Shown here piece by piece: positions 20,880 through 52,815 of a DNA stretch of 64,000 nucleotides. This stretch comes from Octopus vulgaris. Its lineage: Eukaryota. Numbering within the stretch: position 1 is the first letter of the stretch; each line of letters starts with the position of its first letter. Position numbers and translations under genes: made by a program. The DNA lies in contig CATOCA020000001.1 of NCBI GenBank assembly GCA_951406725.2, positions 6,944,001-7,008,000 on the forward strand, in the 5' to 3' direction. The notes under the pieces were generated by a model. The model did no database searches and was not told where the DNA came from. It saw nothing but the letters and a program-made list of their open reading frames with translations.

Positions 20880-22692
20880 ATAATAATAATGACCGTCCAC
20901 TCGTGACCGAAGAAAACCATTGCCGACCTTCAGGAACATTGTGCGCTCTACGAGGACTAACTTATATTTTGCATTTGTGGCTCCGTTGGTGGCTAATGAG
21001 CCCTGCTCTTGACAAGCATACACGACTGCAAACTTTGCAGACCAAACTTTCCCCATTCACTATACGAGCCGTGCGCTTTCGCGCAGCTCGCTTAAGTTCT
21101 TCATGCTGGATACGTGCTCTCTCAAAAGTGTCCTCCATCTGCTTCCTCCATCTGTGGCGATGACAGGTATTGCTCTCCCAGTCAGTGTCCTGCATATCAC
21201 AGGCCTTTAATGAGGACTTGACACAGTCCTTAAATCGCAGTCTTGGTTTCTGCCGGAGTCTCCTTCCATTCACAAGTTCTCCATAGAGCATCTGCTTAGG
21301 AATCCTTCTATCCTTCATTCGAATAAGGTGTCCAGTCCAACGCAACCGGTGCTTGTGCACCACCGCTTCAATACTCAAGATATCAGCTGTCCTCAGGATC
21401 TGTGTGTCTGAAGCTTTTGAGGTCCAGCTAACATTGAGAATGTGTCTGAGACATCTCTGATGGAAACGTTCAAGGACCCTTACCTGACGCTTGTACAGAG
21501 TCCATATCTCACATGAGTAGAGAAGCGATGTCAGTACATAAGTACGGTACACAGCAACTTTTGTTCTCCTTGCGATGCCATGTTGGTACCAGACACGAGA
21601 CTGAAGAGACTGGAAGGAATTAGTTGCTCTCTGCAACCTGAAAGATAGTTCCTCATCCAGGGAGCAAGAACGGCTGAATGTGCTGCCCAGATAGACTACT
21701 TGTCTACTACCTTCAGAATTGTTCCTTCAACGAAGATAGCTGGTTCTATATATGGATTTCCTGGTGCAGGCTGGAACATTACAACAGTCTTGTCCAGGCT
21801 AATGCTGAGTCCAAATGCTCTGCAAGAAGCAGAAATGCAATTCATGATTATTTGCATGTCATCTACTGTATGAGTGACTAAGTCACAGTCATCTGCATAA
21901 AGGAGGTCACGAATAATAGTCTGGAAAACCTTTGAATTGGCAGCAAATTGGCGAAAATTAAAGAGGCGGCCAGAAGATAGACATCTGACATATATTCCCA
22001 GAGAGCTAACTTTAGCAAAAGCATGAGTAAAAGTAGCAGCAAAGTACAAAGAAAAGAGAGTTGGGGCAAGGATGTCACCCTGCTTGACACCATTCTCTAC
22101 AGGAATGGGTCCCACCATGGCACCACCAACATTGACCTAAGCCTCCATCTCATCATGAAATGATTTAATTATAGATACAAAGTGATCTGGACATCGAAGT
22201 TTGCCAAGTATTTTCCATAGAAAGGCCCTATTTACAGTATCTAAGGTCTTAGTTAAATCAATGAATACCTGGACAAGATCCATATTCTGCTCATAGCACT
22301 TCTCCTGCATCTGTCTTGCTGTGAAAATCATATCCATTGTCCCTCTACCAGATCGGAAGCCACATTGAGATTCAGATAGGACATCATTTACGAGACACCC
22401 ATGCAGACGGGCAAGAAGAATATTTGCCAGAACCTTACCAGCAGCTGATAGTAGAGCAATACCTCTGTAGTTACCACACATTGTTCTGGCTCCTTTTCCT
22501 TTATATAGAGGAAGAATAATTGCATCCTTCCAGTCTTTAGGGATTGCACCATCCCTCCAGACTGCACTAATAAGTTCATGAAGGGACTGTGTGATGCAAT
22601 TACCACCAAATCGCAAGACCTCAGCACAAATTCCATCCTTTCCAGGTGCCCTACCAAGATTCAATTTACTTATTGATGTCATTACTTCATCT
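20880..22692 (-). mobile_element. RTE (BovB-like) LINE, 5'-truncated, reverse transcriptase pseudogene
   Basis: APGKDGI, YRGIALLS, QCGFRSGRGTMDMIF, FIDLTKTLDTV, GVKQGDILAPTLF, LLYADD, RLRWTGH and a C-terminal CKVC...HQRSH zinc finger. One in-frame TAG (22137-22139) and one frameshift near 21700; (ATT)n tail at about 20880. Confidence 0.93.
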
Positions 22693-23746
22693 ATATACAT
22701 ATATATACAAGTATATATATATATGCAAACATACACATATCAATATATACATGTATATATATATATATATATACACACACATACATATACATACATAGAT
22801 ATATACATATATATATTTATATATATTTACATACATATATACGTGTATTTACCCACACACGCATATATCCACTAAATATGGCCAATAATATTCCAAAACA
22901 CTACTGGGTTGAAAATGTAATCAGTTCACTGATAAACGCTTGGTACACTCACCAAAAAGATTGTGTAAAAGCTAATGTTTACAGTAAAATCGCTGAAAAA
23001 ATAACAAAACATTCAGAAGACGATACAAAAAACACGGACGAGTCATTCGAAGCCTTCAATCTTCAGTGAAGAACCGGATCATCCTCGCAATTTCGGCTGA
23101 TTAATCTTGAGATTGCTACAATCTGACCAGCCCCAAGGAAAAACTAAGTTAAGCGCATTAGATTCCTTGGAAAAAAGCTTCGAATGTATACGAAACAAGG
23201 ACAGAAAACGGACGATGTTATACGAATATGAATACAAAAATAACACGAAATAACAATAATAATATATATATATGCGACAGGCTTCTTTTAGTTTCCATAT
23301 ACCAAATCCACCAGGCTATAGTAAAGACAGTTGCACAAGGTACAGTGCAGTGGAACAGAAACCGGAACCATTTCGTCGGGAAGCAAATATTATACCACAG
23401 AGCCGCCTGCGCCTACACACAGATTGCAGCCACATCTTCCTCGAATTGTAGCATAGTGTTTAGAAGAGTCACGTGGTATAAGGTAGTTTTAAATGCAGTG
23501 AAATCGAAAAACAAAAAGTACGGGAAGATATGGTTGGTTGTGATCATCGGCGAGGTCGATCAGTACTTACCTAGGGTTAAATAATATCAAACCTATATAG
23601 CATTTTTCATCATCTCTCTTTTAAGCTGCCGTGTGTATGACATATGTGACTGGCATGTATGGTCTACACAAGTGCGGGAACTGATCTTTTTAGGTGCACT
23701 CGAATTTTGATAAAGGTTTTAAAAATGCATTTAACTCTGTGAGTGA

Positions 23747-24226: not shown

Positions 24227-25828
24227 TCATCATCATCATCGTTTAACGTCCGTTTTCCGCGCTAGCACGGGTTGGACGGTTCGACCGGGGTCTGGGAAGC
24301 TAGGGGCTGCACCAGGCTCCAGTCTGATCTGGCAGTGTTTCTACAGCTGGATGCCCTTCCTAACGCCAACTATTCAGTGAGTGTAGTGAGTGCTTTTTAC
24401 GTGCCACCTGCACAGGTGCCAGGAGGGGGTCTGGCATCGGCTACGATTGGTTAGTGCTTTTAACGTGCTACCGGCACGGAAGCCAGCCGAGGCGGCGCTG
24501 GCATCGGCCACGTTCGGATGGTGCTTTTTATGTGCCACCGGCACAGAAGCCAGTCGAGGCGGCGCTGGCATCGGCCACGTTCGGATGATGCTTTTTATGT
24601 GCCACTGGCACAGGTATCACAACTACTATTTCCATTGATATTTGTTTCGATGTTCATGTACATGCACTTGACTCAACAGGTCTCCTCAAGCACAGCGAGA
24701 TGTTCTGGGATCCAAGGTACTTTGAATGGGCAGGGGCTATGCGGAACTGGTGCCGGAAGCATCCCGGGTCTTTGCAGTCACAGCACATCTCCAGAGATCT
24801 CGGTCCTTCGCCATTGCCTCAGTGAGGCCCAACGCTCTGAGGTCATGCTTGACAACCTCATCCCATGTCTTCCTGGGTCTACCTATCCCCCTGATTCCTT
24901 CAACTGTTTGGGAGCGGCACTTCTTCACACATCTCTCCTCATCCATCCACAGTACATGACCATACCATCGCAAGCGACGCTCTTGCACACCACATCTGAT
25001 GCTTCTTATGTCCAGCATTTCTCTCAGGGTGCTTACACTCTGTCGTGCGTTCACACTGACATAACACATCCAGCGGATCATGCTAGCTTCATTTCTTTCA
25101 AGTCTACGCATGTCCTCTGCAGTCACGGCCCATGTTTCACTACCGTGAAGCATGGCAGTTCACACACACATGCATCATACAATCTACCTTTCACTCTGAG
25201 TGAGAGACCCTTTGTCGCCAGTAGGGGTAGGAGCTTTCTAAACTTTGTTCAGGCTATTCGTATTCTAGTGGTGACACTCTCTGAGCATCCACCTCCACTA
25301 ACTAACTTGGTCACCCAGGTAGCGGAAACTATCAACAACTTCTAGTTTCTTCCCCTGGAGTGTGATGGAATCTGTTTTCTGAGTATTTGTGGTGTCTATT
25401 GTCCCTGTGCATCTGCCGCACATGAAAGCTATCTTATCAGTTAATTTCCCTTTGATGTTGCTGCACCTCTTATGCGTCCATAGCTTACACTGGGTGCATC
25501 TTATGGAGTTTCTACCTACACCTTTCCTACAGATCGAGCAGGGCCACCTGCCTGATGGGGTGTGTGCTGAGTTCGCCTTTCTGCTTACTATAACTTTGGT
25601 CTTTGCTACATTTACTCTAAGGCCTTTTGATTCTAACCCTTGTTTCCACACCCGAAATTTCTTTTCTAGTTCCGGTAGTGATTCTGCTATGAGAGGCAGG
25701 TCATCAGCATAGAGGAGCTCCCAGGGGCAACCTGTTTTGAATTCCTCTGTTATTGCCTGGAGGACTATGATGAATAAAAGGGGACTGAGGGCTGAGCCTT
25801 GGTGTACACCTACTTCTACTCGGAATTC

Positions 25829-25830
<2 letters not shown>
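24227..25830 (-). mobile_element. RTE-clade LINE 3' half (RT with PHD-like insert, 3' UTR with ~58-bp repeats)
   Basis: GVHQGSALSPLLF, ELLYADDL, FRYLGD, MLHGSETW, RRLRWYGHV, GRPRKTW; (TGA)n tail. Confidence 0.92.
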
Positions 25831-25866
<36 letters not shown>

Positions 25867-26059
25867 CATACATACATACATAGGGACAACAAAATACAAA
25901 AAAAATATGATGACCTCGAAGACAGAATATTCTGGAATTGGTAACTTGATCTGTTAACACTTTTGAATTAATAAAGAGTCCAAAGTAAGAATGCTGTGTG
26001 TGTGTGTGGTAGGTTGTATGCATATATCTGATAATAGCGATAATGAGATACACACCTGT

Positions 26060-28993
26060 ATACACATACCAGACTACTAAACACCAAATAACACCAACAT
26101 GAAATATGTATCCTCTGACCAAGTGGCAAACCAAAGAGGTAACTCTTTTTTACTGTCTTACCTAGAAAATATGAAGGCCGACCTAAGCCAGGATATCCAA
26201 CGAGCTATCAGCAACCACCTATGCAAATCACAAGGACCACACACCCACTACCAACAAGAAAATCATACACACACAGCTCCATACAAGAACTACCCACATT
26301 GTTACCACTGAACAACATAAAACACAACTTAGAACAAGGCAAACATCAAACTCCCCTTACCTCGACATTCCTGTTAAATGTACGTGGCATCAACCCATCA
26401 ATTATTGCCCAAAAATGGAAGATCCCATAGATAGAGAGTTGGCTTGCCGAAACGGCACATTGCTTCCCTTTCTTTATCCTTACTGAGACTCACCTGAACA
26501 ACACCCATATGGACGCCGAGGTGAAAATAAAAGATTTCACCATTGTTCGTGTGGATCGCACAGACCGAAATAAGGGAGGGACAGCCATCTTTATCCATCT
26601 ATGACTCCTTTTCACTTGATGCCAAGAATATATTTTCCAATGGCTATTGTGAATCTGTATCACTATTCAGCAAGGCCAAGGACATAATCATTGTTGGTCT
26701 TTACAGGCCTCCCCAAGCACCTCTAAAGTGCTTTGAAGAGTGCCTTAGTAAAGTCAAGTCCTTCCTTCGGAAGTACAACTCCGGAAACATACTAGTGGAT
26801 GGGTGATTTTAACCTCCCTTATGTGAACTGGCCCACAAATACTCTGAAGTTAGGCAAATGCTCTACATCAGATAGAGCAGCAGCAGAACTGCTCTTTAAT
26901 CTAATGGATGAATACTTCCTGACTCAGCTAGTGCTCGAACCAACGAGACAGAATAAAACGATCTTGGATCTGGTATTGACGAATCACTCTAGCTTCGTTC
27001 ACAGTATTTCAGTTGAAAAAACTCTCCTCTCATACCACGACATGGTACTCTGCAATTTCAATTCCCGACATATAAAAACCAAACCAGCCAATCCCACTCC
27101 ATGGCACTCATTTGACAACATAAACTTTCACAAAGCGGACTGGGGAGCAACCAGAAAGGATCTGTCTTGCATAGACTTATCTTTCACTCACAATTCCACC
27201 CATACTGAGACCGCATGGCAGCACTTTGAAAACATTGTCACCTATACAGAACAATACTGCTCTGTCTGATATTGACGCAAGAGAAGCGAACAAAGTTGAC
27301 CCTCAACATAAAATCTCAGACATAACCTTTTATTGCCACTGACATCACAGCAGCAATAAATGAGATCAAATACTACTCTGCTGTAGGCCCTGATAGATTC
27401 CCCGCTAGTCTCCTGAAGGAATGTAAATACCAACTTGCAGTCCCTCTGACCAACCTCTGGAGAAATTCGTTAGACGCAGGTTATATACCGAAACAGTTTC
27501 TATCCAAGTCAGTCATCCCGGTTTTCAAACAGGGAAACAGATCCCTCGCACTCAACTATCGCCCAATCTCACTCACCTCCCACATCATCAAAGTGTTTGA
27601 AATTGTGTTAAGATCAAGGATAGCTGACTTCCTGGAGACCCACAAACTCCTAAATGCAAATCAGCATGGCTTTCGCTGTGGCAGGGACTGTCTAACACGG
27701 CTCTTACACCACATTGAAGATGTACTCAAAGCCTTGGGAACAGGTTCGAACTCTGATGTCATATATCTTGACTTCAGTGAAGCGTTCGACAGGGTAGACC
27801 ATAATATCCTACTCTCAAAATTGGCAAATGTTGGAATCCGTGGAAAAGTTCTACACTGGATCAAGTATTTCCTGGCGAATAAAACACATGTTGTAGTTGA
27901 TGGAGTCCACTCAAGCCCAGCAAAAGTCACCAGCGGTGTCCCCCAGGGGACTGTCTTAGGTCCGCTACTCTTCATAATCTACATAAACGACCTTTCCAGT
28001 GTCGTACATTACTGCAAAGTGAAAATATTTGCTGATGACACCAAGCTCCAGCAAATCGTCAATGAAGAAGCAGACCGAACTCAACTCCAGTCTGATCTAT
28101 ATGCTGTGAGTCAATGGGCAAACAGAAACAAAATGCAACTGAATGAGGGAAAATTTGAGCTGATGCATTTTGGAAGAAACTCCTCACTAAACCAACCATA
28201 CTCTTCCTTCAGGGGAACCGCTCACAGCCTCTAACAATATCAGAGACCTGGGTGTAATTGTTGATGACGATCTCAGTTGGAGTGCACACATCAACAAGAA
28301 GGTCGATATAGCTCATAGGATGAGTTCCTGGATCTTAAGAACTTTCCAGTCCAGAGAACAAGGTGTCATCATACCACTTTTTTCCTCCTTTGTACGGCCA
28401 CACCTTGAATACTGCTGCCCACTGTGGTCTCCTCACACAAGACAAAACATCTCCAGGATTGAGTCACCCCAGAGGGCACTCACTAAACGAATTGAAGGCA
28501 TGGCTGCTCTCGATTATTGGGATCGCCTTAAAGCCTTGAAACTTTACTCCCTCCAGCGTCGCTGTGAGCGGTACATCATTTGTACGATGTGGAAAATATA
28601 CCGCCAACTATGCCCAAACGACCTGAACATTAGCTTCAAGGTTCATCCAAGACTGGGACCACGGGCCATTCAAGATCACAGCATACATGTACACTACAAC
28701 ATAATTTCTTTTCCTCAACAGGCCCTGCCCTATTTAACATTGTCCCGAAAGAGATCAAAGAGCAACAGGATCCCATCAACTTTAAACGGAGTCTGGATAG
28801 ATTCCTTCAAGGAATACCAGATAAGCCACCCATAATTGGATACAACTCACCCAACAAAAACTCACTACTTGAATGGACCATAAACAAAGCTTGACTTAAA
28901 CAGGATTCAAATAATCCTATCAGGTGGTGCTATTAAGTTAGACATGGCCTGGACCAATCTTTGGTCGAAACATATCTAAGTTTATCTAAGTTT
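26060..28993 (+). mobile_element. CR1-group LINE (ORF1 remnant plus APE-RT ORF2), disrupted
   Basis: APE motifs LLNVRGI, LTETHL, GLYRPP, MGDFNLP, PTRQNKTILDLVLTN; RT motifs YRPISLTS, QHGFR, YLDFSEAFDRVDH, GVPQGTVLGPLLF, FADD; VRPHLEYC...LYSLQRR. Internal deletion near 27250; (ATCTAAGTTT)2 tail. The 5' boundary is approximate. Confidence 0.9.
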
Positions 28994-29866: not shown

Positions 29867-31689
29867 ACACTTCACCCATATAGTTAATATGGACTTCTCA
29901 AAATCTACAAAAGTTAGGCCATAAACGAAATCAGTAACAAGTTAACTTCTATAGTCATAAATATTCCACACCCTAGAGATCTCCGAATGACCAATTATGA
30001 CCGATCCAGGTATGTAGGTACGGCGGGGGGCAATTGGGTGCTTAACACTTGCAAATCTGAAGTCGCTAAAGGTGCAATAAATTGAACTTCTTTTCATTTA
30101 GCAGTTAGTGATCTGCAAATGTGGGTATCTTAGAAATGGTTAAAGTGTTTGTTGTAGCTGTAATTGTTGCACACACACAAACGAATAAAAACACACAGAC
30201 GCTCACACACACATACACACACAAATAAAAACATTCACACAGACACAAAGACTGAAATGAAAATACCAAAACACACACAAATAAAAACAGTCCCACGCAC
30301 ACAAACACTGAAAAAAATACTCACACACTCACATACGCACAAACACACACAGAGAAGTGAAAATACACAGCTACATATTCACACACTCAAACACGCGGAC
30401 AAATAGAGAAAAGAAAACAGTTACATACGCACACACTCGAAGACACAGAAAAGAAAACACTCACACAGACACATGCACAAACACACAGACATACACATAT
30501 AGAAATGAAAAATACACAGTTACACATCCAAACTCTCACACTCACACACGCACAAACACACACAGAAATTAATGTAGTCACAAACAAACATACGCACCCA
30601 CACACAGAAATGAAAACGCAGTTACACAATCACACATAAACCCTAACCCTAACTAGCACAAACATACAAGTTATTCAGAATGTAAAGGGGCATTGGGTGC
30701 TTTGCACTCGCAGTTAGAATATCAGCTCCCTCCACGCCAGTATGAGAATTTCTTTCATCCACTTGTGAAATTAATACATTGTCGCCATATGAGAAAAATA
30801 TGAGCAATATCTGAAGTCACTAAAGGTGCAATAAATTGAACTTATTTTGATTTAGTACTTAGTGATCTCAAATGTGGGTATCTTAGAAATGGTCAAAGTG
30901 CTTGTTGCATTTGTAAGTGTCGCACACACACAAACAAATAGAAACACTCAGTCGCTCACACACTCGCGCACACAGAAATAAAAACACTCTCACACACACA
31001 CAAACAACCACTGAAATGAAAATACCCATACTCACATAAATAAAAACAGTCCCACACACACAAGGAGCCCCAATAGGTATATCAAAAAAGTTTCTAGTAT
31101 TTTTCCTAGCCCATAATTTATAATAATTGAAGTTCTTACAATAAATAAATGCCTACTAAATCAGTACATCGAAAATTAAGTCCCCGTAACTTTTCGGTTC
31201 TGCAAAAGAGACCTATACATTAAGTAATAGGCATACAAAGAATAATTCCTGGAGTTGATTTGCTTGACTAAAGGCGGTGCTCCACCATGGTCACAATGAA
31301 ATAACTAAAAGAGTCTAACATGCAGGGAAATAACTCTAGAATATATTATTCAGACATGACACACACTGTTACGCTTTTCCTTGTTTAGTCATTTCACTGT
31401 GTCCATGCTGGAGCACAGCATTTTCTAGAGCAAATCGACACTAGGACTTACTCTATGACAGTCTAGAATTTATTTGTTGGTCGTCTTTTCCCGAAGTTAC
31501 TGGAGTGTAAAAATACCAGCATCGGTTGTCAAGCGGTTTTGGGGACACAGAAACATATATATAAATATATATCTAGTTTATATTTACTGTTGAGAAAACC
31601 GCGCGAGAGTGGTAGATTTGGAAAAGTTATAGCATATAGACTCGAGACATGGTTATTATCGCCTCGAGCCTATATGCTAGTCCTTCGCT

Positions 31690-31769
31690 TTCTGCTCAAG
31701 AGGCAACGCCAGTCGTAACTAAATTTGTTTTATTTACGAAAGATTGCCGAAACTATGCATAGTCCAGAA
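31690..31769 (+). ncRNA. type I hammerhead ribozyme motif with G5C core substitution
   Basis: Stem I TTCTG/CAGAA; core CTCAAGA (canonical CUGANGA); stem II GGCAA/TTGCC; GAAA; stem III inside the palindrome ACTATGCATAGT; GUC cleavage triplet. Confidence 0.7.
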
Positions 31770-31968
31770 TGGATAGGGTAAACGTTTTTATTTCTCTTTC
31801 CATTTCAGAATTACAATTATCACTGGTTTGGAGTTTAACTGCTCTCTCTAGTGAGTCGGATGTCCCATTATGGCCATCCCTTATATGTTTAAATATCTAT
31901 ATGTATATACATATATCTGTCAATATATACCTATGTCTCTCTCTCTCTCTCTCTCTCTCTTTCGCTCT

Positions 31969-32029
<61 letters not shown>

Positions 32030-32389
32030 CTGTCTATATACGACGGGCTACTTTCTGTTTCCGTGTACCAAATCTACTCAGAAACGTTGGTCTGTCCGAG
32101 GCTATATTGGAAGACACTTGCCCATGGAGCCACGTAGTTGGACTGAACCAGAAACACCGTGTTTGGAAAGCAAGCTACATACCACAGCCACTCTTACTGC
32201 TACATATATATATATATATATATATACTACAAAATTAGAAAATGGAGAAACATACTTAAATCAATCAAACATCAACCATCAGATGATACCCAATCAATAC
32301 TTTATTACACCATTACATAACAGTAAAGGCATTATACAAAATATATTGTGAATATAATTAGACAAGGAAATAGAAATATAAAATATAAA

Positions 32390-32429
<40 letters not shown>

Positions 32430-33289
32430 ACAGTCTTCTTTTAGTTTCCGTCTCCCAAATCCACTCACAAGGCTATGGTCGGCCCGGGACTATAGTAGAA
32501 GACATTTGCCCAACGTGCCACCCAGTGGGACAGAACTCAGAAACATTTGTTAGGTAAGCAAGCTAATTCCCATTCAGACACTACTGTTTGTTAACCGGAC
32601 AAGTTCAAGGTGAGCCCTAATTGTTTGTATGCAAATGAGTTCATTAATGGGGTCCGGAACTTTCGCGGCTGGGTCCCATAAGACAATGCATCCACCTTGG
32701 GTATAGGTGGACTGTGCTCACACACGCACAAACACCCACACATCCGCACTCACGAATATAGATACACGCAAAGACGCAATCTCGTACCTATTTATGTTTT
32801 AAATATGTTGACCTTAAAACTGTGACATTCTGAAAACACACGACCGCACTCATGCACATAGATACATGCATATACGCAAACTCGTAGCTATTTATGTTTT
32901 AAACATGTTGACCTTTAAACCATGACATTATGTGTCTGTTTGCGCGTGCATTTCTGTGAGAATGGTTGCTCACGAACCGTAATGCGCTGAGTTCAAACCA
33001 ACAGCGTTGCACCTTTGGTAAGTGTATTCAACTATAGCCTAGGGCCGACCAAAGTATTCTGAGTGGAGTTAGTAGAGGGAAACTGAAAGAAGCCCGTCGT
33101 ATATATGAATATCGGCGTAGGAATGGCTATGTTGTAAGTAGTTTGCTTGCGAACCACATGGTTTGGTGTTCACTCCCACTGCCTGTCATCTTATGCAATT
33201 GTCAACTAATGTACCCCAGGGCCGACCTAATCATTGTGATTGGATTTAGTGGAGGGAAACTGAAAGAATCCCATCGTATATATGTTTAA

Positions 33290-33335
<46 letters not shown>

Positions 33336-34365
33336 TGTGTTTGTTCGCACTCGAAGGGCACACGAGAATGCACGCACGTACTATCACATATACAGATGCA
33401 AGTTTTCTTAATAAAACGGAAAGAACTCCCGTTCCATCCCTTACAGTTTCTTTTTTGTTTTAAACACTACATATACGTGCGTGGGTATATACACGTATAT
33501 CTGTATGTGTATGTCTGGGTGAAACAGACTTTCACGGTTGGGTCACATTAGCCGATGCGACCACCTTGGGTATGTGTGGACTGTGCTCACACACGCACAA
33601 ATACCCACACTTCCGCACTCATGCACATAGATACATGCAAAGCTATTTCATGTTTTAAATATGTTGACCTTAAAACCGTGACACTCTCAAGAAATTGTAT
33701 GAGCGTGTGGGTCAGCCAATATGTGTGCTTTCATCTCTCTGTCTGTTTGCGCTCGCGCATGTGTGTGAGAGTGTTTGCTCACCAACCTCAATGTGCTGGG
33801 TTCAATCCAACAGCGTGGCACCTTCGGCAAGTGTATTCAACTATACCCCCGGGCCGACCAATGTATTCTGAGTAGGGTTGGTCAATTGAGAGAAACTGAA
33901 AGAAGACCGTCGTATATGTTTATATATATATATGTGTGTGTGAGTGTGTTCGCACTCGAATGGCACACGAGCATGCACGCATGAACCATCAGACATACAG
34001 ATGCAAGTTTTCTCAATGAAAGGGAAACAACTCCCGTTCTATCCCATACAGTTTCCGAGAGCTATGAGTAAAATTCCTTCCTTTAACTACTTTTAGTATT
34101 ATATACTTGTAAGGAAGGCAACTCTCCATACATCGCTTAGAGCCTATTATTATTCAAACACTATTTACGTTTCCTAATGTTAAATTGTATTAGTATCAAT
34201 TAACGGATGTAACTCTTGTCAAGTAAGGGATGTAGAGGGAGTTACTTTCCTTGGTTTGAGATTCATTTTTATATTTAAGTTTAAATGCCAAAGGGAGATG
34301 AAACTATGAGTTAGGGTTAGATGTGTGTATTTCCATTTCTGTGTGTGCGACTACGTGCTTTTATA

Positions 34366-44979: not shown

Positions 44980-47722
44980 TCTAATTACACCCAAAGGCAT
45001 AAACAAAAACGAACAAAAAATAAGACCCGTGATCTTGACACCAAAATTAAGAAAGGCCTTAACAAATTAAAAAATCATATAAAAAATAAGAGATTGTATG
45101 CTTCCCGACTGACAAATCAGTTAGAATGTCTGTTGACAACTTATCTAATTACATTTTGAACATGCAACCACACATTGAAAACGAAAAAGTCCTCAATGCT
45201 CACATGGGGATGCGGAGTATCATTCTCCAGTCTGAGGAATGCACAGCAAACAATTTCATAACTACCAACAATGAAATCCCACCCCTATATGGCCTTCGAA
45301 AAGATCATAAGATCCACATGGATCATATACTTGGGCCACCTACCCGACCTGTTTGTGGTGCCAACAATGCAAACAACCACAAAATATCATATTTTCTCTC
45401 ACAATTCATAAGACCCTTAATAGAGTTATCTGCAGATTTACGTGATAGTACTGAAGACCTCCTTAGCAGGATCCGCGAATGCAACAACACATGTGACCTC
45501 AGAGAGCACATCGTAGGTATCATGGATATGGTATCACTGTAAGGCGGCGAGCTGGCAGAAACGTTAGCACGCCAGGCGAAATGCTTAGCGGTATTTCGTC
45601 TGCCGTTACGTTGTGAGTTCAAATTCCGCCGAGGTCAACTTTACCTTTCATCCTTTCGGGGTCGATAAATTAAGTACCAGTTACGTACTGGGGTCGATGT
45701 ATTCGACTTAATACCTATGTCTGTCCTTGTTTGTCCCCTCTGTGTTTAGCCCCTTGTGGGTAATAAAGAAATAGGTATCACTATATCCTTCCATTGATAT
45801 AGAATTTGCTGTCGAAAAATGTATAAAGATAATTAGTGAGAGTAATATATTTAAAAATGCGGACATATATGAACTATGGCTCTTCCTGGCACCAATGAGT
45901 ATCTGTCACACAATAATCTTCTATATGCTTGTCTTTCCCGTAACAAACGAGGTAGACCACCTACCATTACCTCAGCATACAAAAAGACCCATTGTGAACG
46001 CTGACAGGGTTTGATGAGGCAGACTACCCACCTTCAGATGCACAGGACATCAGAACTACTATTGCACATGCTATCGGTGTCAGCCTTAGAACTATACTTA
46101 AAACCCATATTTTTAAGTTTAACAAAAAACTGTATAAACAGACGAAAGTGGTGCTATTGGAGTAGGGATCGTCGGTGATGTTGCAAACCTCTTCATTGGA
46201 TGGTGGGACAGACAGTTTAAACAGTGCCTAGTGACCTGTAACATCCACTTAGCTATGTACTCTCTATACATTGACGACATTAACATTGTTGTGAAATGTA
46301 ATAATAATACAGACACAGAGATAGAATCTCTACTAAATGAAGAACAGGTGATGACAGCTATACAACACATGGCTAACTCTATCCATAGCAGTATAAAAGT
46401 TACCGTAGACTGCCTCTCTAAACACCCCAGTAACAGATTACCTGTCCTAGATACTGAGCTGTGGATAGAAAATACTATGGTTAACGGAACTGTTAAATCC
46501 TGTTTACTCCACTCACACTCTTGTAAACCTATGGCTAATCCACTGGTAATCCGTAGTAACTCAACGATGTCGAGTACTAACAAGCTCAACATCCTGGTGG
46601 CAGACTTAGTTAGATTAATGAGGAATGTATATCTCCACTATGCCAACCACAAGAACGACAACACATCCAGCACTTCATATTCCGAATGCAACGCCCCGGA
46701 TACACACAATATGAGAGAATCAGAGTGTACAAAGGAGCAAAACCAAGATTCAAACACATTCTAAGTGATGACGAAAACAGTGTATGGTTCCTATACCGCA
46801 ACAAGTTCTGGAATAGGTTAGAGAGGGACACCAAGAAAAGAAATAAGACCAATACTTGGTATAACAAGAGATTTCACAGTGTAATGTTTGTTGATGCCAC
46901 ACCTAAGAACGAATTATGTAAGGCATTCAAGGAAATCCTACACACAACTGGCCTTAAGATCAAGGTTGTAGAAAAGACAGGTAGGACTATCAAATCTGTA
47001 TTGTGTAGATCATATCCTTTCGATAGATTCCCATGTCAAAATAATTGCGCAGTATGTTCCACAAACCCACATGTGAACTGTAAAACCAAGAACATTGTGC
47101 CAAGAAGGAGCTTGCGAGACTAACCCAGAGTCATACATAGGTGAAACTTCTAGGAGTATCAATGATAGGTTCAAAGAACACCTGGACAACTACATTGAAA
47201 AGAAACCAAACTCCATCTTCTATCAGCATGCTGTAGACTGTCACAAGGGCTCCTTAGGGAGACTTAAGTTAAACATTTTATCCACACATCCCACTGATGC
47301 AGTGCTGAGACAGGTCAATAAATCTGTCTGTATACAAGAATACAAACCCACTCTCAACCGAAAATCCGAATGGAGTAACATCCAGATTCCACTCAGGATG
47401 ACCATTCTATAACCACCCCTCTCTCTCTCTCTCTCTCTCATTTACAAGTAGTAATCCATGCATAAATGTTGAAATGCATGGTACTAAAATACATATATGC
47501 AGTTATATCTAACCGTACGAGCGTACATTGTTTGATACGTATGTACATATGTGTAGATGTATATGTGTGTATACGTATGTGTATGTGTAAATATACATAT
47601 GAATTATATATGTATGCATGTAAAAAATAAATAAAAAGAATAAATAGAATAAAATAAAACAAGTTTGAATTTTAACCATTGTCCTTGGAAAAATTGTCAT
47701 ATATATGTATACGAACAGCCAT
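44980..47722 (+). mobile_element. Penelope-like retroelement (RT plus C-terminal GIY-YIG endonuclease), disrupted
   Basis: PTDKS, PPLYGLRKDHK, PTRPVCG, MDMVSL|YPSID, GAIGVG, LYIDDINI, LPVLDTELW, KPMANP, Cys-rich linker, YIGETSRSINDRFKEH...QEYKPTLN. Frameshifts and a SINE insertion. The 5' boundary is approximate. Confidence 0.9.
45542..45773 (+). mobile_element. SINE family B, full copy with target-site duplication
   Basis: AGGCGGCGAGCTGGCAGAAACGTTAG...GAGTTCAAATTCC...TAATAAAGAAATA; flanked by GGTATCACTGTA (45530-45541) and GGTATCACTATA (45774-45785). Confidence 0.9.
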
Positions 47723-48683: not shown

Positions 48684-49618
48684 TAGGGTTGGCAACTAAG
48701 TTCCCGCCGTTTTTTTTTATTTAAATTGTTTAAAAGGTTTAATGATTAAATAACAACTAATTAATCAATAATGTATTCACTTTTGTTGTTTACAACTTCT
48801 TCCCAATGTTCAAAAAGATTTTCAATACCTTGTTGGTAGAAATCACTCGATTTCGACTCGAAAAATTGATCCAACTAAGCTCTCAATTCTGTATCAGTAC
48901 TGAACGAAACTCTGTGCATAGCATTTGAAAGAGATCGAAAGAGGTAGAAATCCGTTGGTACAAAATCAGGAGAGTACGGCGGATGTGGCAGTACTTTCCA
49001 ATCATGCGTTTGAATTGCTTCCTTGGTCATATTGGCGATATGTGGGGTGGGCAATGCTGTGCAGCAGAAGAACTCATGCTGCCGATTAAATCTTTTCTCT
49101 TGAATAGCCGTGTTGAGTCGTTCCATCTCTTGAACATAGAATTCTGCATTGACCATGTGGTTCCATTCAAGCAATTCGTAAGGTATAATCCCCTTCCAGT
49201 CCGACCATACGCACAACATCATTTTATGCAGATGGAGATCTTGTTTCATGTGCAGTGTCGCTTGTTTACCAGAGCTCAGCCATTCCTTTCCGCTGCTTCA
49301 TTTTGATGTACAGGCACCATATTATGTCGCCTGTGATGATTCGGTAAATAAATCGTTGCTTTTGTCCATGAGTTGAGCGGTGATGAGCAAGCAAACCTGC
49401 AGAGATTGTGGCTCATTGATTTTTGTTGTTGTCACTTAAAGCATTCGGAACCCATCCTCCATACATCTGCACCTTTCCCATCGAATAAAGATGCTTCTCT
49501 ATAGCAGTGTGGGAGCATTCCATTTTCTCTCATATTTCCCTTGCCTTTTGACAAGGATTTTAGTGCAAAAGTCGGTTTAATTGCTCTTCCTCGAACTCAA
49601 CTGGATAGCCAGAACGAG
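48684..49618 (-). mobile_element. mariner (DD34D) transposon fossil, 5'-truncated
   Basis: RSGYPVEFEEEQLN, KMMLCVW, HPPYSPDFVPTDFYLFRSLSN; one TIR-like end TAGGGTTGGCAACTAAGTTCCCGCCG at 48684. Confidence 0.88.
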
Positions 49619-52560: not shown

Positions 52561-52815
52561 AAGTGAGAATCTCCTTATTTACCTAAAACTCTATCCCCCT
52601 TTTTTTATATATATATATATATATATTTTTTATATATATATTTTATTTTTTTTTTTTTGTGTTTTTTATTTATTCTTCTATCTAATTTAACACTGACTCC
52701 TTGACCACTCCCCCAAGTATGATATTTTGCGCTATGCCTACCCCCAAAAAGTCCCCCACCAACACCCCTTTAAACCTGCCTAAATGTATAAATGCCAATA
52801 CAATTCTTGTTAACT

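Follow-up and report, generated by a model that had tools for sequence, protein, structure and literature searches.

A hammerhead-bearing repeat family of Octopus vulgaris whose insertions share the end pattern of Penelope-like elements

The window analysed here, a stretch of 64,000 nucleotides from the Octopus vulgaris genome, carries a type I hammerhead motif within a short non-coding insertion (Table 1). Three pairing stems, a C at position 5 of the core and a stem III that forms a perfect 12-nt palindrome can be read directly from the sequence, as the preliminary description had stated. In a relaxed hammerhead scan of both strands, this motif was the window's sole match; as a control, 40 block-wise dinucleotide shuffles were scanned and a single one matched. 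Rfam gave nothing at E ≤ 10 for positions 31570–31900, and the 150 matches listed, out of 200 for the whole window, came from simple repeats scoring against miRNA and snoRNA models. Folding of the 291-nt stretch exhibited a z-score of −2.8, and that of the hammerhead core alone −1.1.

Table 1 Features of the flagged copy and of the repeat that it interrupts (window coordinates).
Feature	Position	Strand	Remark
5′-truncated copy of retrozyme unit	31575–31900	+	unit positions ~258–455 then 1–130; 91% identity to family majority
Upstream hairpin	31630–31679	+	arms 31630–31646 / 31663–31679; 16/17 pairs in window copy
Candidate pseudoknot, 5′ strand	31684–31688	+	family TTGGC; window copy TTCGC, breaking pairing
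Type I hammerhead motif	31690–31769	+	core position 5 (31697): C in window copy, G in family
Stem I	TTCTG 31690–31694 / CAGAA 31765–31769	+	read from window sequence
Core CTCAAGA	31695–31701	+	C at position 5 (31697)
Stem II	GGCAA 31702–31706 / TTGCC 31744–31748	+	read from window sequence
GCCAG, stem II internal loop; candidate pseudoknot partner	31708–31712	+	
GAAA of hammerhead	31749–31752	+	read from window sequence
Stem III palindrome ACTATGCATAGT, loop TGCA	31752–31763	+	
Predicted cleavage position	after C31764	+	
Fixed terminus A	31890–31900	+	inferred reverse-transcription start; TA-rich sequence then follows
Left half of ~420-bp SINE-like host repeat, split by element	31363–31543	.	
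Right half of ~420-bp SINE-like host repeat	31990–32186	.	collinear with left half in intact copy L006:436–860

The stretch first taken for a ~290-bp unit is a truncated copy, the full unit measuring 455 bp (455–491 bp across the family). Its right boundary is indeed a family terminus, whereas the left one is a random truncation, and the copy lacks the ~92-nt tail that runs to a second terminus, B. The upstream hairpin is real and exists family-wide in a less perfect form than in the window copy, where a single A·C mismatch interrupts its 17 positions; its inner arm CTCGAG is private to this copy (majority CTCGTG), and the weight earlier put on the hairpin was misplaced. In the same way, the G of TTACGA in the inner helix TCGTAA/TTACGA of stem II is a private change (majority TTACAA). 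Further departures from the majority affect core position G5, the candidate pseudoknot strand and distal stem I.

Hammerhead catalysis requires G5. This base is present in all 25 other aligned loci, four segmental duplicates apart, and is kept in 63 of the 64 aligned pieces of a larger set. The four further copies with C5 are all segmental duplicates of the window insertion, flanks included. The G5 counts therefore decide between the two possibilities raised at the outset in favour of an inactivated copy rather than a natural variant: judged from its sequence, the window copy is a core-mutated, 5′-truncated element that is predicted to be inactive, and in itself most likely an ordinary one.

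The insertion point is the internal microsatellite, a (TA)n tract, of the host repeat, which is SINE-like. Window positions 30090–33380 are segmentally duplicated on contigs C27 and C31 (97–99% identity, ~3.3 kb), and a fragment at 47107–47409, part of a Penelope-like element (PLE), is likewise duplicated. Several other window fragments (20962–22739, 24737–26149, 26796–28835, 11407–11778 and 48875–49297), a number of them interrupted by (TA)n tracts, resemble LINE reverse transcriptases and Tc1/mariner transposases in their motifs. The region 56001–64000 exhibits a strong GC skew (0.39–0.46) and AT skew (0.17–0.30) and is probably a strand-biased simple or satellite repeat. Another hammerhead, at 52816, lies in a repeat (52600–52980) that had been called unrelated to the flagged element; this holds, no match between it and the flagged family being better than E 0.096. 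That repeat family also terminates on (TA)n with inverted pieces (L092, L101, L119, L122 and L027). Outside the window, L039:2218–2305 is a separate hammerhead with an intact core, a long stem II and a short palindromic stem III; it lies outside the flagged family, between (TA)n tracts and adjoining a family copy.

To define the family, the 2.8-Gb genome (227 contigs) was searched. The window element gave 1,554 first-look candidates, of which 40 were scored. Exact matching returned 503 hits to a pattern of the core with the TGCA loop, 551 to a pattern of the hairpin near the far terminus, 8 to a further variant and 2,475 to a 28-nt hammerhead pattern of a young sister subfamily, with no match to the reversed control in any case. 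The sequence is thus not single-copy but belongs to a family of thousands of members. Its 455-bp, circularly permuted unit was defined from partial head-to-tail copies, and eight real monomers of 458–491 nt are collinear with 57–95% identity. The unit of the young subfamily measures 491 bp, is 57–65% identical to those of other subfamilies and retains the core CTGANGA in 69 of 70 units. Unit GC content is 0.32–0.36, and all four real monomers that were folded as circles gave z-scores between −3.0 and −6.1 (40 shuffles each). The unit runs from terminus B straight into the next hammerhead without a long ORF, and tblastn with PLE proteins found no ORF inside the unit or its arrays, in keeping with the non-coding character first proposed.

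Copies of the window's own subfamily mostly span fewer than two units, and the longest in a related subfamily reaches 2.7 units. An initial reading that long arrays do not exist, based on five dimers, was discarded, since the pattern behind it matched a single stem III variant and spacing. Young arrays, near-identical and either one- or two-armed, include C1:7117195–7121196 (L197), C1:31731905–31736367 (L199), L149, L215 and L216. In the subfamily L159–L166 the loop is CATG, and most of the copies read carry U at position 3 of the core. Donor-like and acceptor-like motifs ~31 nt apart just after the hammerhead raised the idea of an intron; it was ruled out, as the AG is lost in several subfamilies, no contig skips the stretch and the stretch folds into a hairpin. 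Contigs from presumed-RNA runs cover the family, carrying no information on strand, ends, level or circularity; in them, set against a DNA-like run, the element shows no enrichment above the repeats that flank it. One form of a motif taken from loose contig ends had no match in the genome, and a second form led to another subfamily. With a consensus G5 core, tandem arrays and conserved stems all found, the proposal of a retrozyme- or pLTR-type family was borne out.

Conservation of the fold was assessed on 91 extracted motifs, one of them outside the family, from which 31 were hand-picked as subfamily representatives. Among these 31, pairing holds in 93.1% of cells and both partners change in 12 of the 19 pairs, counts that are inflated by relatedness and affected by local misalignment of three subfamilies in stems II or III. 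None of 500 shuffles reached the observed level, and slid partners paired in 26–38%. Compensatory changes on both sides occur in all three stems, and RNAalifold finds stems I, II and III unprompted. Stem II is long and interrupted by an internal loop, and stem III comprises 4 bp in most subfamilies. These covarying stems, together with the CTGANGA core of the young units, indicate that the fold has been under selection in units of only 57–65% identity.

Loop 3 takes three different palindromes across subfamilies (TGCA, TATA and CATG). A palindrome is seen there in 86 of 91 motifs; that count is biased, as one pattern search had required TGCA. By prediction, the stem III 12-mer alone forms no stable monomer hairpin (0.0 kcal/mol) and a homodimer of −15.9 kcal/mol, which agrees with the dimer model for palindromic loop 3 set out in PMC4209133 and PMC7229834. 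The minimum-energy fold differed from the hammerhead in four of four segments, with stem III pair probabilities of at most 0.08. A GGC before stem I can pair with a GCC in the stem II internal loop, the three positions being paired in 30, 31 and 29 of the 31 representatives; the outer pair varies (UG, UA or CG), and 8 of the 31 do not form the fourth pair. This near-invariant 3-bp core is a possible pseudoknot, and we treat it as a candidate only. At L166, up to 7 pseudoknot pairs are possible.

Mapping of insertion ends revealed two fixed sites, A ~135 nt and B ~227 nt downstream of the predicted cleavage site, with a family tail of 92–102 nt between them. At 81 non-redundant loci, 92 of 112 3′ ends fell in the A and B intervals, which make up 12% of the unit; locus selection by DNA query biases these end counts, and the subset selected by hammerhead pattern gave 29 of 40. 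By comparison, 7 of 50 5′ ends fell in the same intervals and 43 elsewhere. Within 40 nt of 100 of the 112 3′ ends lies a (TA)4 stretch. Target-site duplications, for which the criterion was more than 4 bp, would be masked by the (TA)n tracts in which the insertions lie.

Many insertions consist of two arms set back to back; the outer ends of arms are fixed, the inner ends are ragged, and arm length ranges from 0.2 to 9.4 units. Two arms are present at 31 of the 81 loci of the older set and at 17 of 24 loci of the young subfamily (18 multi-match loci from the first 100 listed matches and 6 first found by tail pattern). Both ends are canonical at 15 of the 31 older two-armed loci, which comprise 14 with A and B, one with B and B and none with A and A (P = 3.6e-4). 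In the young subfamily, all 17 mapped two-armed insertions combine A with B, 12 of them being from a hammerhead-only list, and all seven single arms end at A or B. From this pattern we infer that the fixed ends A and B are reverse-transcription starts.

The same genome contains PLEs. A decayed one at window positions 45090–47412 has a reverse transcriptase together with a C-terminal GIY-YIG domain, is frameshifted and is split by a short repeat near 45541–45780. Its family is autonomous and young elsewhere, with open frames of up to 1,025 aa, and all five resolved insertions, out of six two-armed ones fetched, combine an A and a B end on (TA)n, with a tail of ~60 nt. An atypical hammerhead-like core, GTGAACAG, is identical in 11 of its arms. 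A second young family (L096–L099) is a two-ORF element with many intact copies; its 781-aa RT and GIY-YIG ORF contains a CX4CXXC linker, Neptune-like by the description in PMC8557442, and its two ends lie ~38 nt apart. The hammerhead of these elements is minimal and has the U3-A8 type of core known from PMC4209133, and the 5′ end of L097 is close to that site.

Linkage of the flagged family to a PLE reverse transcriptase had been expected, and no physical linkage was found. The screen for a homologous terminal repeat covered 72 PLE loci, a minor share of the 6,136 and 5,552 first-look candidates, and none of them had one; tblastn identified no PLE ORF contiguous with the family. The only PLE piece that adjoins a family copy is a reverse transcriptase fragment beside L028; considered as a family–PLE chimera, it proved uninformative, being internal and cut on both sides. 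The two matches that the screen of PLE loci did give, one inspected (L068) and one judged by its coordinates only (L220), look like independent neighbouring copies.

Frangieh et al. 2024 (PMC11167929) reported that, in vitro, both strands of AT-rich DNA are cut and extended by a PLE protein and that cDNA starts at two internal RNA sites, the gap between which equals the genomic tail, a feature described there as unique to PLEs. This two-site initiation, together with the A and B rule common to the family and autonomous PLEs, suggests that the family most likely uses PLE machinery. Our main reading, to which we assign a probability of roughly 0.7, is that the family is a non-LTR retrozyme that a PLE copies in trans, with self-cleaved RNA circles as the probable template. 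An array would be transcribed and its hammerheads would cut the RNA to unit length, probably with the help of two copies of the palindromic loop 3 that pair with each other, after which the units would be ligated into highly self-paired circles. A PLE RT/GIY-YIG protein would then cut both strands of a (TA)n tract, as the ends and the findings of PMC11167929 suggest, and cDNA would start at the two internal sites, one per strand. The outcome would be the pattern seen in the genome, namely one or two back-to-back arms with A or B as outer end and a ragged inner end; the window copy would represent a single 0.7-unit arm ending at A. Points that count against this reading are the missing homologous terminal repeat in the PLE loci screened, a tail longer than the published one and a predicted minimum-energy fold other than the hammerhead. 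More tentatively, and at slightly less than even odds, one PLE complex may prime both cut (TA)n strands on a circular RNA, A on one strand and B on the other, rolling out multi-unit arms from an RNA that has no detectable PLE homology, is recognised by structure and carries a hammerhead that is extended, possibly pseudoknotted and missed by Rfam.

The nature of the template was considered at the 12 loci that have at least two complete units, with 65 units in the alignment. A locus-private base is present in every unit at nine of the 12 and spans both arms at five of eight, and the seven units of L197 show zero substitutions. L200 is heterogeneous, with up to 17 substitutions between units, the arms of L198 differ from each other, and in L202 a variant recurs at three-unit spacing. 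Of 51 tandem pairs of units, 17 were more alike within their insertion than either was to the nearest other locus and 28 were less so, a comparison that is dominated by two loci and does not discriminate. Several of these observations suit a PLE that mobilises uncleaved linear read-through RNA, with the hammerhead acting later or in regulation and arrays regrowing by DNA-level duplication: the period-3 and arm-specific variants of L202, L198 and L199, the heterogeneity of L200 and the lack of consistent closeness among units of one insertion. It also accords with the in vitro work, in which uncleaved RNA was the main template, cleavage was unnecessary and hammerhead mutants still inserted (PMC11167929). 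We nevertheless consider this alternative unlikely. A linear template should only keep or shorten arms, so that the arms of 6–9 near-identical units that begin at fixed ends fit rolling-circle copying, and the selection on the fold also argues against it. A circular template is ranked ahead of a linear one, which falls short of proof.

It is improbable that the copies are solo terminal repeats (pLTRs) of an unsampled autonomous PLE and that the family is not independently mobile. Their layout, a hammerhead followed by two ends on (TA)n, does match the 3′ ends of local PLEs, 150 of the 6,136 GIY-YIG candidates were scored, and Xenopus retrozymes are reported to derive from pLTRs (Li, Clavereau & Pollet 2026, bioRxiv 10.64898/2026.07.22.740005). 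However, the unit closes on itself without an ORF and forms arrays of up to 9.4 units, and the internal fragment beside L028 is the one exception to the absence of a contiguous PLE ORF. A minisatellite or MITE-like DNA repeat spread by recombination, with the fold inherited passively, would account for tandem arrays and inverted arms and is largely refuted by the fixed outer and ragged inner ends, the A and B rule common to autonomous PLEs and the compensatory changes in all three stems, while perfect terminal inverted repeats with a fixed target duplication were not seen.

Compared with known systems, the family adds further non-LTR retrozymes or non-autonomous PLEs, a kind already described. 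As in the non-LTR retrozymes of Cervera & de la Pena 2020 (PMC7229834) and bioRxiv 10.64898/2026.07.22.740005, its units are non-coding, tandem and a few hundred bp long with one type I hammerhead each, loop 3 is palindromic, GC content is below 50%, the predicted circles are self-paired, copies range from monomers to multimers, and autonomous PLEs share the genome. Its unit size of 455–491 bp compares with 150–450 bp in PMC7229834 and 51–972 bp in the bioRxiv study. The family differs in its long stem II with an internal loop, in a stem III of mostly 4 bp rather than the 1–2 given for non-LTR retrozymes, and in its two-armed arrays and two fixed (TA)n termini, which do not appear to be described in those two sources. 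No pLTR homologue was found for it in our screen, whereas 24 of 57 Xenopus families are reported to have one in the bioRxiv study.

With PLEs, as presented by Craig et al. 2021 (PMC8557442) and in PMC11167929, the family shares partial tandems, an inverted 5′-truncated arm, a one-end tail, microsatellite or AT-rich targets and a hammerhead upstream of two termini. Unlike PLEs, it has no ORF, and thus no RT and GIY-YIG ORF between terminal repeats such as marks an autonomous element; its tail measures 92–102 nt against 30–40 bp, and its hammerhead is extended and does not fit the minimal PLE form of PMC4209133, in which helix III is missing or vestigial and loop 2 is short. Non-autonomous Chlamys elements such as MRC1 (PMC8557442) resemble it in having no autonomy, in pLTRs and in head-to-tail multimers. 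According to the same paper, however, their 3′ ends are generally like those of their autonomous partners, and canonical hammerheads are missing from most Chlamys elements; for our family no partner homology was found, and the hammerhead is central. The possible pairing between the stem I side and the stem II loop recalls the pseudoknot-stabilised hammerheads of Perreault et al. 2011 (PMC3088659), although here only the GGC/GCC core is kept in all subfamilies, as a candidate contact. A literature search found no paper on the family; it is weak evidence, most subscription journals, repeat databases and supplements being outside its scope.

PMC7229834 calls PLEs ‘a strong candidate’ for retrozyme mobilisation, and the bioRxiv study, in which only one of nine retrozyme dimers was cleaved, describes the mechanism as open. 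The family is of interest because the way in which animal retrozymes move is so far hypothetical, and its value lies in an unusually clear genomic record of that movement: a young subfamily with a PLE-specific two-ended tail and a strict rule of one arm each, beside autonomous PLEs that obey the same rule. It also supplies natural covarying hammerhead variants that Rfam misses. The young arrays offer the best assay material and a good system in which to test retrozyme mobilisation. Two questions become testable with them: is a circular RNA foreign to a PLE copied by the PLE protein, and does a circle or an uncleaved multimer serve as template? Should one PLE complex indeed prime from A and B on the two cut strands, the family would preserve the entire retrozyme cycle as a fossil record.
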